Below, piece after piece: positions 11,537 to 16,747 of a stretch of DNA of 64,000 bases. This DNA comes from Candidatus Heimdallarchaeota archaeon (GTDB lineage Archaea; Asgardarchaeota; Heimdallarchaeia; Heimdallarchaeales; Heimdallarchaeaceae): contig JAUVXV010000004.1 of assembly GCA_030603365.1 (NCBI GenBank), positions 1-64,000 on the forward strand. The letters run 5' to 3'. The notes beneath the pieces are model-generated. The model was not told the origin of the DNA and made no database searches. It was given only the letters and a program-made list of their open reading frames with translations. A program made the position numbers and the translations under genes. Every line of letters begins with the position of its first letter. Position 1 is the stretch's first letter.

Positions 11537-11818
11537 TTATTTTACTGGAACAAAGTCTTTATCGATGATACGTTTAATATGATCTTCAGGTAACTCTTGA
11601 AGTTTTAATTGTTTAACAAATAAATCCAAGCATTGTTTGCAATAGACATGTTTAGTCTTTTTATTGTAGGCTAAAGGGGACATCAAATTACTTTTACCAC
11701 AATTTGAACATCTTTCTTTGATTCCAATGGAAACTTCTTTAGAACAATCTTCACAGTATCCTGAGGTGTTTGTTATAGGTCTACCACATTTAACACATAA
11801 TTTTACTCGTGTTACCAT
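11537..11818 (-). CDS. Small double zinc-ribbon protein
   Basis: Four CxxC pairs (CVKC, CEDC, CSNC, CKQC). Confidence 0.75.
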   Translation of the reverse strand: MVTRVKLCVKCGRPITNTSGYCEDCSKEVSIGIKERCSNCGKSNLMSPLAYNKKTKHVYCKQCLDLFVKQLKLQELPEDHIKRIIDKDFVPVK

Positions 11819-11895
11819 ATTATTCGTGGAAACCTTTCATTTTTTGATTTTAAAGTTATGGATTTTGACTGAAGAAAAGCGACAAGTATACACAC

Positions 11896-12074
11896 GCCCC
11901 ATCATTTCAAGTGGAATATGTTTAACTATTTGTACATACAAATAATACTATATTAAACTATATTTGTACATAGCTTCAAGTTAAAGAAAGTTGTTCATTA
12001 TATAAATGTTTCGTTTTTCAATTAATAAAAACTCTATTTATATCAGTTATCAGTTCTAATGGAAGGGGAGGGGT
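11896..12074. promoter_or_regulatory. Candidate oriC segment A: inverted ORB pair flanking an AT-rich stretch
   Basis: Minus-strand TTCCACTTGAAATGATGGGGC (11916-11896) and plus-strand GTTCTAATGGAAGGGGAGGGGT (12053-12074) resemble the TTCCAGTGGAAA..GGGG ORB consensus. Confidence 0.7.
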
Positions 12075-12189
12075 GTCCCCTTATTTTGCCTTACATAAAG
12101 CTGATATTACTTAGGTTTTTAACTAAATAATACTAGTCTAACATGATATCTATATTTATATAAATAAAAAGCAAGTAAATAGTAGCAAA

Positions 12190-12651
12190 GTGAATAATAT
12201 GCCTAAAGAAGTAACAATCAAATTACCTGATGGTACCATTATTAGAATACCTTCTGGTGATACTGAAAGTCTTAGGACTACACTTGCTTTAGTTACAGGA
12301 AAATCTGATGGATCCAATCCTGCAGATGAAGAAAAAGAACAATTGAAAATTACAAGTGTAAATGATTTAATTAGTGCTTCAAAAATTGAAAAAGTAGCAA
12401 GTATAATAAGAAATCATTATCCAGAAGGAGATTCGTTCACTTCAAATGAGGTTTGTGAATTATATGAAATAATCTTCAGGGAAGGAGTAAAAATGAGTAC
12501 AGTAAGCACTTATCTATCTAGATTGGCAGATGAGAATATGTTAAACAGAAAAGGTAGTGTATCTCAAAGGCTGTATTCAGTTACAAGGAAGCTATTAGAG
12601 CACTTTGGAGAAGTAAAAGTGTTGGAAATACCTCCAGAACTTTTAGAATAA
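12190..12651 (+). CDS. Winged-helix DNA-binding protein
   Basis: C-terminal FTSNEVCELY..VKMSTVSTYLSRLADENMLNR..RLY wHTH pattern. Confidence 0.75.
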   Translation: MNNMPKEVTIKLPDGTIIRIPSGDTESLRTTLALVTGKSDGSNPADEEKEQLKITSVNDLISASKIEKVASIIRNHYPEGDSFTSNEVCELYEIIFREGVKMSTVSTYLSRLADENMLNRKGSVSQRLYSVTRKLLEHFGEVKVLEIPPELLE

Positions 12652-12697
12652 TTTTATTTTTGTTTATTTTTTACTGATTGGAAGAAAAAAATATTAA

Positions 12698-12778
12698 TCT
12701 TACCACGTGATTTTTTGTTTTCGTGGCAAGATATTTTTTAATTGTCTTACCACGCACATTTTTCTTTATGTGGTAAGA
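12698..12778. repeat. Two tandem spaced palindromes TCTTACCACG-N14-(C/T)GTGG(C/T)AAGA, period 47 bp
   Basis: Arms at 12698-12707, 12722-12731, 12745-12754, 12769-12778. Confidence 0.85.
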
Positions 12779-12828
12779 TTTTCCTTTTTCCCTCTTTCGC
12801 TCTTAAAAAATGTAAAAGGGTATTTAGA

Positions 12829-13962: not shown

Positions 13963-14115
13963 TTATTTCACCTTATCATGACAATTATAACTTATTATTA
14001 GATTTTATCAAGAATATATATTAATTATTACGTATGAAGAAAGAAATCTCAATTATAAGATCAAACCTCAAGTATTAAATGAAAAAACCAGTAGATTACA
14101 AGATATTTCGAAAGG

Positions 14116-14547
14116 AATTCACAAACATTTGTGAATTGATTCCATAGGAAATGCGCTGAAACTCCATAGATATACGCTAATTTCCTCTAAAAGTGCCTTC
14201 ACATGTTGTGAACGGGTTGTAGTTAAAGAAATTACTGCTTTCCAGTGGAAATAGAGGGGTCTACTTTTTTGGTTCACAAATAGATGATTTTTTCTTAAAG
14301 CGTGATTCGTTGATAATAGATTTTTTGTCGTAAATATATTTTTGTTCACACTGTTTTGAGAATACAGTGAACGGTTCTGACACATAAGTTCACAAAACAA
14401 TCAAATTAAGGAATTTGAAAGTTAGAAGATGTTATGTAGGTAATTGAGTAAAAGTGAAGGTTTGTATTCATTGTGTTTACTGTATTCATCGCGTATTACA
14501 CTTGCTTAGTGAATACTGTAAAGAACACGTATTACATGGTTATTACA
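14116..14547. promoter_or_regulatory. Candidate oriC segment B: canonical ORB, mini-ORB and two arrays of short repeats
   Basis: TTCCAGTGGAAATAGAGGGGT at 14240-14260; TTCCATAGGAAAT at 14140-14152; repeated TTCACA and GTATT(A)CA; about 1.3 kb upstream of cdc6. Confidence 0.8.
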
Positions 14548-14605
14548 GCTAAGAATTCAGAAACTTGAATAAAAACTAAGAAGAAGATTAGTGTGGAAAA
14601 GTCAC

Positions 14606-14956
14606 TTAGATTGCTGCTTCAAAATTAGTAAGAGTTTCAATAATCTTGGATCGTTTCTTCTCTAAGTCTTTGATGGTATACCCAATATCAATCCGTTCTC
14701 GAATTGTTCTTGGAACTTGTTTACCTAAATATTTTGTATACTTATATTCGGGTTCCAAACGCAAGTAAAAGTAGGGGCCATGAAGATCTTTAGTATTAAA
14801 ATTACATTTACAATTTTTCTTTCCACACTTGATGTACTTTGGACTAATAAAACCAAAAATTGGTTCTTGTAAAGATAGATGTTGAATTTGACTTTCTAAA
14901 TTATTAACAATATCAAGTAAATCAACCTGAATCTGACTTGTTTTATCGATTCCCAT
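14606..14956 (-). CDS. DUF6788-like zinc-finger protein with coiled-coil flanks
   Basis: KCGKKNCKC-x7-HGPYFY..KYLGK motif. Confidence 0.75.
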   Translation of the reverse strand: MGIDKTSQIQVDLLDIVNNLESQIQHLSLQEPIFGFISPKYIKCGKKNCKCNFNTKDLHGPYFYLRLEPEYKYTKYLGKQVPRTIRERIDIGYTIKDLEKKRSKIIETLTNFEAAI

Positions 14957-15017
14957 TTATCGTCGGGTATAAATAGTTTAACACTAAAGAAATTATTAGA
15001 TATTACTCTGATATTCT

Positions 15018-15401
15018 GTGGATTATATTGAATTATTTAATCGACATAAATCCCCTAAATATAGAAAGGGAAAATACAGTGATAGAATGCACCAAAGTAA
15101 GAACATGCTAACAAAGAAAATAAAGGAGAAATCATCAATACAAGGAATTGTAATAAGTAGTAGACGTGTTTACGTTTACTCAGACGAGATAGATCAAGAA
15201 ATTGAGTTAGATAATCTTCTAATTAATCTTCTTAATGAAAACGGTCCTCTTACACGTAATGAACTCGTTGCTATGACACATATTCCACGTTCAACCCTTT
15301 ATGATAACTTAGCTAAAATGATATCCAAAGGGATTATAAAGAAAGAGGCAGTTCCACGTAGTACTAGAGGAAGACCTAAAGTCTTATTCAAATTAGTTTA
15401 A
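15018..15401 (+). CDS. HTH protein, TrmB/ArsR-like (true start probably 15087 or 15105)
   Basis: GPLTRNELVAMTHIPRSTLYDNLAKM..RGRPKVLF. Confidence 0.8.
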   Translation: MDYIELFNRHKSPKYRKGKYSDRMHQSKNMLTKKIKEKSSIQGIVISSRRVYVYSDEIDQEIELDNLLINLLNENGPLTRNELVAMTHIPRSTLYDNLAKMISKGIIKKEAVPRSTRGRPKVLFKLV

Positions 15402-15523
15402 AACTACTTAGAATAACCTTACTTTAATTCATAATCCTTATGTTTATTTTAGTCGTCATCTAACGACAAAGTTAAACAGTGGTTAAAATTTCTTAGTATT
15501 TAACTGCAAAGAGATGAATAGTT

Positions 15524-16747
15524 ATGGGTGAAAAACCTAAATCCAATATTGATGAGATATTTGATAGATATTTAGATGCAGAAACCAAAATTTTCGCAAA
15601 CAGAGATGTTTTGAGTCCTCATTATGTACCGGACATTTTACCTCACAGAGATGATAAATTTGAGGAATTGGCAAAGATTTTAGCACCTGCATTAAGAGGA
15701 GGAGCACCATCTAACATATTTATTTATGGGACAACTGGCACTGGAAAAACTGCAGTTACAAAACAAGTCTTAGCAAAACTGAAAGAAAGAGCAGATTCTA
15801 GGAACCTAGCTTTCAAGTACAGTTATATGAATTGTCAGCACGTAGATACAAAATATAGAGTATTAACACAATTGTGTGAAGATATAGGAATAGATGTTCC
15901 ATTTACTGGTTTGCATTTCGATGTTATTTATCAGAAGTTTAGAGATGCCCTAGATGAACTTGATACAATGCATGTCACAGTATTAGATGAAATAGACATG
16001 CTTTATCGTAAAAGCTCGGAATCATTATATATTTTAACTCGAATGAATAGTGATTTAGAATCATCAAAGATTAGTATTATTGGAATAACTAATGATGTAA
16101 ACTTCAAAGAAACACTTGATCCTAGAATTCGTAGTAGTTTAAGTGAAGAAGAAATTGTCTTTTCGCCATATACAGCTGAGCAACTCAGAGATATTCTTAC
16201 TCAAAGAACAGATGTAGCATTTCACAAAGATATTTTGGAGTTTGGTGTCATAAATCTTTGTTCAGCAGTTGGAGCTCAACAACACGGAGACGCTAGACGA
16301 TCTTTAGACTTACTTCGTGTTGCAGCTGAATTAGCAGAAAGAAATGGGGACGAAACTGTTACTGAGTTACATGTAAGAAAAGCACAACAAGTTATAGAAA
16401 GAAACACTGTCATTGAAGTTCTAACCTCTCTTCCAATACAAACAAAAGCAGTTTTACAGGCTATTTTTATTGGAGAAGGGAAAAATAAGGAAGTAACAAC
16501 AGGAGATGTTTATGAAATCTACTCAAAAATCTGCAAGTTGGTTAGATTAGACATTTTAACTGCTAGAAGAGTTGGAGATCTAATAAATGAATTAGATATG
16601 CTAGGTATTGTTACAGCACAAGTAATCAGTAAAGGAAGATATGGTAGGTCAAAAAGAATACACCTAACAGTTCCATCTAGGCAGGTAAGAGAAGTAATAG
16701 AAAGTGATTTTAGACTCTCTAAGATATTTGAGATGGAAGAAATTTAG
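15524..16747 (+). CDS. cdc6: Orc1/Cdc6 replication initiator
   Basis: YVPDILPHRD, GTTGTGKT, LDEID, GDARR, C-terminal wH SKGRYGR. Confidence 0.97.
   Translation: MGEKPKSNIDEIFDRYLDAETKIFANRDVLSPHYVPDILPHRDDKFEELAKILAPALRGGAPSNIFIYGTTGTGKTAVTKQVLAKLKERADSRNLAFKYSYMNCQHVDTKYRVLTQLCEDIGIDVPFTGLHFDVIYQKFRDALDELDTMHVTVLDEIDMLYRKSSESLYILTRMNSDLESSKISIIGITNDVNFKETLDPRIRSSLSEEEIVFSPYTAEQLRDILTQRTDVAFHKDILEFGVINLCSAVGAQQHGDARRSLDLLRVAAELAERNGDETVTELHVRKAQQVIERNTVIEVLTSLPIQTKAVLQAIFIGEGKNKEVTTGDVYEIYSKICKLVRLDILTARRVGDLINELDMLGIVTAQVISKGRYGRSKRIHLTVPSRQVREVIESDFRLSKIFEMEEI

Follow-up and report, generated by a model that had tools for sequence, protein, structure and literature searches.

A probable Orc1/Cdc6-dependent replication origin with two origin recognition box modules and associated small DNA-binding protein genes in a Heimdallarchaeaceae archaeon

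Where does chromosome replication begin in Asgard archaea, the closest known relatives of eukaryotes? We found no paper describing an Asgard replication origin in the literature searched. The question is raised by a locus at 11537-16747 of a 64-kb stretch of DNA (hereafter, the window), which forms the start of contig C14 in G000, the genome of a Candidatus Heimdallarchaeota archaeon (3.65 Mb, 33% GC, 17 contigs); depositors label homologues of one neighbouring protein Candidatus Heimdallarchaeaceae. The initial annotation of this stretch had proposed an origin beside orc1/cdc6, with origin recognition boxes (ORBs) in two intergenic regions upstream of the initiator gene. Both regions are where it placed them and are conserved, and the locus is very probably the main chromosomal replication origin, of the classic archaeal type, of this Heimdall-group archaeon. 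The account we favour, at a probability of roughly 70%, is a principal Orc1/Cdc6-dependent origin in which one ORB module (module A) initiates replication and the other (module B) serves for auxiliary docking or control. The identification as an origin draws on the conserved ORBs, the unstable spacer of module A, the Orc1-1 orthologue, the nearby genes for DNA polymerase D (PolD), topoisomerase, and rRNA, and nucleotide skew in a related closed genome.

Genes were called with Pfam cut-offs, with NCBIfam models alongside. From 8.8 to 18.1 kb they are, in order, an ABC ATPase and an FtsX permease (both on the plus strand), a double zinc ribbon protein (DZR, minus), a winged helix-turn-helix (HTH) protein (wHTH153, plus), an M42 aminopeptidase (minus), a DUF6788 protein (minus), a second winged-helix protein (HTH127, plus), Orc1/Cdc6 (plus), and an amidohydrolase (plus). 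The initiator gene (15524..16747, plus strand) is of the Orc1-1 type, with the Pfam domains Cdc6_C, Cdc6_lid, and AAA and a score of 512.6 bits against the ORC1-type equivalog NF001625 (cut-off 501). Its orthologue is present in 272 of the 301 genomes, from 70 sampled genera, that make up our Asgard-wide survey; related genomes in the survey are kin and not independent, and counts of families are not to be taken as statistics. In agreement with the initial annotation, the 23S rRNA, the PolD subunits DP2 and DP1, topoisomerase IA, and an EF-2-like GTPase are all encoded within the window.

Four ORB-type boxes occur in the locus, at 11897-11917, 12054-12074, 14140-14151 (a mini-ORB), and 14240-14260, and all four are kept in the 12-13 genomes of our genus alignment. 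Allowing up to 2 mismatches in the ORB core and requiring a G-string after it leaves only 10 sites in the 3.65-Mb genome, two of them at this locus. Module A (11897-12074) lies between the DZR and wHTH153 genes, 3.4 kb upstream of orc1/cdc6 and not directly adjacent to it. Its first box, ORB-A1 (11897..11917), is on the minus strand, where it reads ATTCCACTTGAAATGATGGGG from 5' to 3', with a dyad core and a G-string that faces away from a candidate DNA unwinding element (DUE). ORB-A2 (12054..12074, plus strand; TTCTAATGGAAGGGGAGGGGT) again has a dyad core and a G-string and is inverted relative to ORB-A1, the two G-strings pointing outward from a 135-bp AT-rich spacer. ORB-A1 is conserved in 12 genomes of the genus and has degenerate counterparts in genera g9 and g12. 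The spacer, which is the candidate DUE (11918..12053), has a nearest-neighbour stability between -1.03 and -1.07 kcal/mol per step, where the whole window averages -1.215 (standard deviation 0.074), and ranks among the least stable DNA of the window. It contains two copies of TTGTACATA (11930-11938 and 11964-11972) and one of ATTATATAAATGTTTC (11997-12012), all conserved across the genus, and the TGTACA core is retained in g9 and g12.

The ORB(-)/DUE/ORB(+) arrangement of module A agrees with the layout termed canonical for Sulfolobus, Methanocaldococcus, and Hyperthermus (10.64898/2026.08.15.744077). Units of this kind are also present in g14, f29, and other Asgard families, with AT-rich spacers of 135-215 bp (f4, g14, f29). 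In the sister family f4, an ORB(-)/150-bp/ORB(+) unit stands immediately before cdc6, which supports module A as the ancestral core. An origin core of this ordinary kind is useful in itself, as it supplies a concrete, conserved ORB/DUE sequence for the Heimdallarchaeaceae chromosome.

Module B (14118-14547) lies between the peptidase and DUF6788 genes, 1.3 kb upstream of orc1/cdc6. It is not AT-rich and has no AT-rich core of its own, and the interval from its mini-ORB to its ORB is of average stability. The core of the module (14118..14394) contains, in order, a perfect TTCACA-N6-TGTGAA dyad (14118-14135), the mini-ORB (14140-14151; TTCCATAGGAAA), a TTCACA-N3-TGTGAA(C) dyad (14198-14213), ORB-B, which is a perfect ORB with its G-string (14240..14260, plus strand; TTCCAGTGGAAATAGAGGGGT), GTTCACA (14272), TTTTTGTCG (14322-14330), GTTCAC-N17-GTGAAC (14344-14372), and another GTTCACA (14388). 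An array of GTATTCA, CGTATTACA, and TTATTACA at 14482..14547 is conserved in the genus, and TTTTGTCG/CGACAAA and GTATTAC(A) are further conserved word families of the module. In the genus alignment each element is an island of identity amid diverged DNA, and ORB-B is nearly invariant, with a single core mismatch in one genome. The arms of the dyads are invariant and their centres variable, which is the signature of protein sites and not of RNA stems. Rfam and tRNA scans of 11.4-16.8 kb found no RNA family and no tRNA, and the frame of a 93-aa open reading frame (ORF) that overlaps the module (14119-14400) is not conserved in the genus alignment. The non-ORB repeat families, of which the initial annotation reported at least three, are real and conserved: TTGTACATA, TTCACA/TGTGAA, TTTTGTCG/CGACAAA, GTATTAC(A), and a pair of twin dyads described below.

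Module B is the densest cluster of GTTCACA and TTCACA in the 3.65-Mb genome, with 7 TTCACA/TGTGAA sites in 644 bp versus 0.72 per kb in the genome's intergenic DNA. Each of the 449 intergenic regions of at least 300 bp left open by the ORF mask holds three copies of TGTGAA or fewer; module B was itself masked by the spurious ORF, and its 7 copies were counted apart. Two of the 13 genomic occurrences of CGTATTACA fall in module B, and the combination of ORB, GTTCAC, TTTTGTCG, and GTATTAC within 500 bp exists at only two places in 3.65 Mb. As a motif cluster module B has no equal in the genome; sites at C12:39.6 kb and C1:250 kb that bring three motifs together look like chance. GTATTAC also occurs near cdc6 in family f4 and beside the ORBs of a second site on the same contig (Locus 2, described below). 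All elements of module B are kept in 13 genomes of the genus and in 4 other genera, 1.3-10 kb from cdc6 and among differing neighbour genes.

To place the origin independently of its motifs, we turned to G035, a closed genome of the same family (3.08 Mb) that carries the same locus at 1.977-1.988 Mb. Raw GC skew had no clear shape in the contigs of G000 or in G035 and was replaced by orientation-corrected GC skew at third codon positions (GC3), measured for each strand's genes in sixty 20-kb windows of G035 (a 39% sample). The cumulative GC3 curve is V-shaped, with a maximum at ~0.32-0.37 Mb and a broad minimum at 1.86-2.4 Mb, and a two-replichore step model outperforms every one of 300 permutations. 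At roughly 95%, the set of origin positions spans 1.83-2.12 Mb, with a further 2.40-2.48 Mb due to one outlier window, and includes the locus; the point opposite the terminus is at 1.88-1.91 Mb. At a resolution of about 0.3 Mb, the test does not map the origin elsewhere. It does not contradict an origin at this locus and modestly supports one.

Is the association of these parts more than inherited gene order? Three units are kept in all five genera of Heimdallarchaeaceae that we compared: the DUF6788/HTH127/Cdc6 triad, module A with wHTH153, and module B. Their arrangement varies. In g12 the block of DZR, module A, and wHTH153 has the opposite orientation, with 10 kb between module B and cdc6. 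Module B adjoins the ABC genes in g11, and DZR is parted from module A by a 2.2-kb insert in g9. The flanking housekeeping genes are syntenic over the five genera. Proximity that outlasts inversions and insertions is better evidence of functional linkage than static synteny. Beyond the family, f5, which belongs to another order, has wHTH153-like, HTH127-like, DUF6788, and Cdc6 genes that are co-directional. The first of them is preceded by an ORB/TGTGAA region, and an ORB(-)/215-bp AT-rich/ORB(+) unit with TTTTTGTCG lies 1 kb beyond that region. The same gene set surrounds two ORBs in f22. In these comparisons, the linkage of the small genes to the origin goes far beyond chance synteny.

Among the small genes, wHTH153 (12190..12651, plus strand; 153 aa) is the most widely distributed companion of the origin. 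The protein has a small N-terminal beta region followed by a C-terminal winged helix (residues about 57-138), which Pfam winged-helix models match weakly. In its AlphaFold model (predicted local distance difference test score [pLDDT] of 77) the winged helix is confident and the N-terminal beta region poorly predicted. Its fold matches only generic winged helices, at E about 6e-3 (MarR, ArsR, RosR, F93, and TubR). In sequence comparisons the family profile matches BlaI in the PDB (1sd4; E 3.5e-4), and Pfam Penicillinase_R (PF03965) matches 8 of 20 family members at E <= 0.01, the protein of the window itself scoring 15.8 bits against a cut-off of 22.6. Cdt1 and WhiP are not among the Pfam and PDB profile matches, which is no evidence of absence. 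We also considered whether wHTH153 and HTH127 are paralogue families; profile comparison gave only generic HTH similarity, with a probability of 11%, and the two are not close paralogues.

A profile search found the wHTH153 family in 180 of the 301 genomes and in 51 of the 70 genera, nearly always as a single match. In the majority of families that allow linkage to be judged, the gene adjoins or lies close to orc1/cdc6 or ORBs: it is 160-800 bp from cdc6 in nine families (f8, f10, f12, f17, f18, f19, f23, f25, and f28) and 1-6 kb from it in five (f1, f5, f13, f20, and f22). In f11 it is ~60 kb from cdc6, yet an ORB and 9 TGTGAA copies lie upstream of it. Family f6 resembles it, with 11 TGTGAA copies upstream, and has wHTH153 and cdc6 on different contigs. 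Even after the initiator gene has moved, origins keep the TGTGAA array and small DNA-binding genes, among them one that most Asgard genera have in near single copy. Within f11, the largest sampled Asgard family (L214, L215), eight genomes show a nearly constant distance of 59-74 kb between wHTH153 and the Orc1 orthologue; it is 142-152 kb in two more genomes and about 1 Mb in one closed genome. Origin and initiator gene may be uncoupled in this family.

In most Asgard lineages an ORB/TGTGAA array lies directly upstream of the winged-helix gene, and TGTGAA reaches 3.5 per kb in the intergenic DNA of 20 wHTH153 loci versus 0.71 per kb in their coding DNA. TTCACA..TGTGAA palindromes are found in the f22 and f9 loci and are absent from the f4 and f29 loci, which have neither wHTH153 nor HTH127; in f9 the dyads are present with wHTH153 but without HTH127. 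This co-occurrence (f9 versus f29 and f4), together with the BlaI/MecI-like profile, makes wHTH153 the most plausible binder of the dyads, a hint that comes from few, related lineages. BlaI/MecI repressors bind TACA-nn-TGTA dyads as dimers, and those dyads resemble TTCACA-N(0-6)-TGTGAA. Although the BlaI/MecI/CopY repressors are the best sequence match of the wHTH153 winged helix, their winged helix is N-terminal whereas that of wHTH153 is C-terminal, and wHTH153 is without their protease-sensed dimerisation domain.

HTH127 is a TrmB/Lrs14-like winged-helix protein encoded directly upstream of cdc6 on the plus strand. Its ORF opens at 15018; because homologues have 104 aa, the true start is probably 15087, which gives that length (15087..15401). 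It matches Pfam HTH_24 (28.5 bits, cut-off 21.9) and TrmB (28.1, cut-off 25.6). With 31.2 bits against the NCBIfam Lrs14 model (cut-off 90), it is not an Lrs14 equivalog. The RGRPK wing is invariant in the alignment, and homologues lie beside cdc6 or ORBs in eight families (f1, f5, f8, f13, f17, f19, f20, and f22).

The DUF6788 protein (14606..14956, minus strand; 116 aa; Pfam 42.3 bits, cut-off 27.2) carries the family's CxxxxCxC...HGPY motif, with C44, C49, C51, H59, G60, and P61 invariant in the alignment. AlphaFold predicts a helical hairpin with a three-stranded sheet (pLDDT 93.5) and an invariant C-x4-C-x-C-x7-H (CCCH) zinc knuckle. Foldseek returned nothing from the PDB at E <= 0.001, and a PDB sequence search gave no match. 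A wider VIA-align comparison recovered helical hairpins only (Z <= 9.5), and no solved structure of equal fold. The protein occurs in 12 of the 70 genera. Its gene neighbours those of HTH127 and cdc6 in f1, f5, and f22; in f9 and f29 it adjoins ORBs, and cdc6 is absent from the surrounding 10-14 kb. A predicted complex of HTH127 and DUF6788 scored 0.00 in a run made without controls, a score that carries no weight for or against an interaction.

The promoters of this triad hold conserved boxes that are invariant in the family, including ATCGACAAAGTTAAAC before cdc6. A divergent promoter region with TTAGATATTACTCTGATATTCT and AATCGACA (14957..15086) is conserved across the five genera. At 47-60 bp ahead of the cdc6 start codon, a CGACAAAGTTAAAC box (15464..15477, plus strand) has the CGACAAA word in common with module B and Locus 2 and is nearly invariant over the five genera, the g9 loci having TAGATAAAG in place of TCGACAAAG.

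The remaining small gene encodes DZR (11537..11818, minus strand), a 93-aa double zinc ribbon protein with four CxxC pairs (Pfam DZR_2, 27.8 bits, cut-off 27) that is divergent from module A. It adjoins module A in 4 of the 5 genera, but its homologues are confined to this class and are origin-linked only within Heimdallarchaeaceae. The initial annotation had joined the four small zinc and HTH genes into one undescribed module for origin control or segregation, each accessory protein binding its own sites. The genes are all in place, with Pfam matches for DZR, DUF6788, and HTH_24/TrmB and a weak one for wHTH153. Judged by their spread they are not a single module: one is pan-Asgard, one widespread, one patchy, and the zinc ribbon family-only in its linkage. 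Origin linkage extends to further Asgard orders and classes for DUF6788 and both winged-helix genes, and not for DZR. The idea of a separate site array for each protein is unsupported, the co-occurrence of wHTH153 with TGTGAA being the only hint in its direction.

How might such an origin work? In the account that we favour, Orc1 would bind all four ORBs, at module A as two opposed monomers, and MCM would be loaded and the duplex opened in the module A spacer. At module B, Orc1 would sit on the ORB and mini-ORB and a dimeric winged-helix protein, most likely the BlaI-like wHTH153, on the TTCACA..TGTGAA dyads. Docking there would tune origin firing, transcription of the HTH127-cdc6 unit, or both. 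HTH127 and DUF6788 would most likely act at the CGACAAA and GATATT boxes around their own and the cdc6 promoters. The small proteins could act in the manner of the ucm/UBP pair of Sulfolobus (discussed below), or they could simply regulate the HTH127-cdc6 unit. Where the array lies upstream of the winged-helix gene, the simplest reading is autoregulation of that gene with input from Orc1. In Heimdallarchaeaceae the array is detached from the winged-helix gene yet conserved, which argues for a role beyond autoregulation and offers a natural test of such a function. A further step would be to regard wHTH153, possibly with HTH127 and DUF6788, as a true initiation accessory factor that occupies the dyads beside the ORBs and on which licensing or firing depends, perhaps because it shapes the Orc1-DNA complex or contacts MCM. 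We consider this tentative and, on present evidence, unlikely; if true, wHTH153 would correspond in function to Sulfolobus UBP or to the winged-helix licensing factors of eukaryotes.

Several points weigh against our account. The G035 skew resolves only about 0.3 Mb and changes sign ~80-100 kb left of the locus, raw GC skew mostly tracks gene orientation (r = 0.79), and skew is weak in the contigs of the genome itself. ORB-B is better conserved than the ORBs of module A, and in g12 an inverted pair of ORBs lies within module B, so that unwinding could take place at module B, or at both modules. One may accordingly ask whether module B is the initiation site, or whether A and B are two close origins used alternatively. 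ORB-B is the best conserved and most canonical of the boxes, the inverted pair in g12 is about 75 bp apart, and a stretch at 13983-14042, among the least stable of the window, flanks module B. However, both module B boxes have the same orientation in the window, the interval between them, of average stability, is full of GC-containing dyads, and the ORB(-)/DUE/ORB(+) pattern with its AT-rich spacer (f4, g14, f29) fits module A and not module B. We regard either arrangement as improbable, and initiation at module A as the better account.

The role given to the small proteins meets difficulties of its own. Families f2, f3, and f4, of the same order, carry the wHTH153 gene away from cdc6 and any ORB, f12 has the winged-helix gene and an ORB without TGTGAA, and the pairing of protein to motif is a matter of co-occurrence in a handful of related lineages. 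In haloarchaea, oapA, named as 'origin-associated', proved to be a GTPase needed for vesicle formation (PMC12091111); conserved synteny with an origin is therefore no proof of a replication function. With this precedent, the small proteins could be ordinary transcription factors and the arrays operators for themselves, cdc6, and the peptidase, affecting replication through cdc6 expression or not at all, with the origin link an inherited gene order. All three folds are typical of repressors (BlaI/MecI-like, TrmB/Lrs14-like, and zinc knuckle), conserved boxes lie at promoter distance from the small genes and cdc6, and the ORB/TGTGAA array directly precedes the winged-helix gene in most Asgard lineages. 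Yet the detached array of Heimdallarchaeaceae is conserved among genus-specific neighbours, and where cdc6 has moved (f11 and f9) the winged-helix gene remains with the ORBs, the two genes being on different contigs in f6. A near single-copy gene beside origins in at least 14 families also exceeds what drift would lead one to expect. We judge purely transcriptional roles to be possible but somewhat unlikely.

The segregation role suggested in the initial annotation fares worse. Origin-adjacent dyad arrays do resemble bacterial parS sites, the wHTH153 profile is weakly similar to the archaeal plasmid protein AspA (E 0.2-0.26), and TubR is among its fold matches, so that the arrays might be a centromere and the winged-helix protein or proteins an AspA/ParB-like segregation adaptor. 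But the similarity to AspA and TubR is at the level of generic winged helices, the array always includes an ORB, and no ParA/SegA-type ATPase is among the genes recognised in the related loci that were compared or among those annotated at this locus, the mid-size ORFs of the window having gone unscreened. A centromere is thus very unlikely. That the locus comes from an integrated plasmid or virus, as its replication module, is hardly credible. Archaeal mobile elements do often carry small HTH and zinc-finger genes by orc1, and DUF6788 adjoins a transposase-like gene at one unrelated locus; against this, Cdc6 is the universal Orc1-1 orthologue, base composition is ordinary, the flanking housekeeping genes keep their order over five genera, no integrase or att-like repeats were seen, and the G035 skew minimum falls in the zone of the locus.

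A chromosomal origin with an initiating and an auxiliary module has partial precedents, of which the closest for module B appear to be the ucm/UBP system of Sulfolobus oriC1 and the second of two ORB clusters in Thermococcales. There Cdc6 binds both clusters, which are about 1.5 kb apart; the second, inside dp1, is bound in vivo as well as in vitro and has been proposed to be an auxiliary docking region (Matsunaga et al. 2007, PMC1904270). The two-cluster layout, which the initial annotation took to be part of an undescribed module, is therefore known; the accompaniment by winged-helix genes and TGTGAA is undescribed in the literature searched. Both systems have two conserved ORB/mini-ORB clusters 1.5-2.3 kb apart in one origin locus, with PolD genes close, and a looped higher-order initiator complex is a natural model. 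They differ in that the Thermococcales clusters flank cdc6 and the second is in a coding gene, whereas here both are upstream of cdc6 and intergenic, with dp1 22 kb away. The second cluster here also lies within a non-ORB dyad array, at a distance from cdc6 that ranges over 1.3-10 kb among genera.

The Orc1-1-dependent oriC1 of Sulfolobus/Saccharolobus contains a ucm motif bound by the protein UBP (Dhanaraju et al. 2025, PMC12141716). UBP is restricted to Sulfolobales and Desulfurococcales, and its authors ask whether other lineages have analogous proteins (PMC12141716), a question for which the present locus gives named candidate factors and sites. The likeness lies in two inverted ORBs around an AT-rich DUE of about 130 bp beside orc1, a conserved non-ORB word in the DUE (here TTGTACATA twice, in Sulfolobus TTATACAAAC), and a small, sequence-specific, non-initiator DNA-binding protein, here a candidate. 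The two words agree at 7 of 9 positions, which may be chance in AT-rich DNA. Unlike UBP, a beta-rich saddle protein encoded elsewhere, the candidates here are winged-helix and zinc-knuckle proteins encoded at the origin, and the main extra motif, the TGTGAA dyads, is in a separate module outside the DUE. In the DUF6788 fold search UBP was a non-significant match only (rank 34, E 5), no search directed at UBP having been made. Haloarchaeal oriC1 is flanked by orc1 and a divergent, conserved oapABC cluster (PMC7002104), OapA being the GTPase ArvA (PMC12091111). The likeness is a conserved, lineage-wide set of genes with divergent transcription from the origin that lies opposite or near the initiator gene; OapA, however, is a vesicle-linked GTPase and not a DNA-binding protein, and no homology between oapABC and the Asgard small genes was found or expected.

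Other features of the locus are more local. A conserved CTAGTCTAACATGATATCTA box (12133..12152, plus strand) stands just before a TATA-like box of the wHTH153 gene. It is nearly invariant in 12 genomes, has 4 matches genome-wide at up to 3 mismatches, and is probably a promoter or operator. The M42 aminopeptidase gene (12829..13962, minus strand; Pfam Peptidase_M42, E 3.5e-96) is a passenger between the two ORB modules; in other members of the genus it is duplicated, truncated, missing, or joined by 2-2.5 kb inserts. Between the convergent wHTH153 and M42 genes, twin dyads of the form ATCTTACCAC-N14-GTGGTAAGAT, also given as CTTACCAC-N14-GTGGTAAG, occupy 12696..12782. Their arms are nearly invariant and their spacers variable at fixed length, and both dyads are found in five further members of the genus and one of them in a sixth. 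A protein site and a conserved bidirectional terminator are both possible readings.

The genome has two further Orc1/Cdc6 paralogues, on C8 and C13, with no ORBs of the type found at this locus within 3 kb of either. At G000:C8:3307-3945, 38 kb from the second paralogue, two ORB-like boxes, each followed by CCCGGGG, stand 616 bp apart in the same orientation.

Locus 2 (G000:C14:139560-140236; L084:3560-4237) has the element order of module B: GGTATTACA, two copies of CCGACAAAAA, an ORB with G-string, and a mini-ORB. A GTTCAC there is not conserved and probably chance. Downstream of the array are a conserved promoter and a 105-aa ORF with no Pfam match, whose homologues occur only in Heimdall-group archaea. 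The locus is kept in all five genera of the family and may be a promoter under Orc1 regulation or another place where Orc1 docks. A second ORB locus of g12 (G035:2.1218-2.1221 Mb) was considered as its equivalent and rejected, being a ACTGCAAT repeat array of another kind. About eight ACTGCAAT repeats lie there beside an AT-rich stretch and an ORB-like box (L081:2750-3100 = G035:C1:2121750-2122100), and two copies occur in the g9 insert between DZR and module A (L078:5495-5520); the array may be the origin of an integrated element.

The origin units of f4 (L044:6560-6780 and L045:2740-2960) have a non-ORB word of their own, TAGTGTAACA, with one copy per ORB and one inside the DUE. It stands in place of the TGTGAA and TGTACA words of Heimdallarchaeaceae, the f4 unit being without TGTGAA. 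Finally, a 1.5-kb stretch at 6200-7780 of the window, with 25% GC, no long ORF, and several of the window's least stable 60-mers, holds a CACCGACAAAAAACG box and a TTTGTACA box that resemble those of the origin modules.

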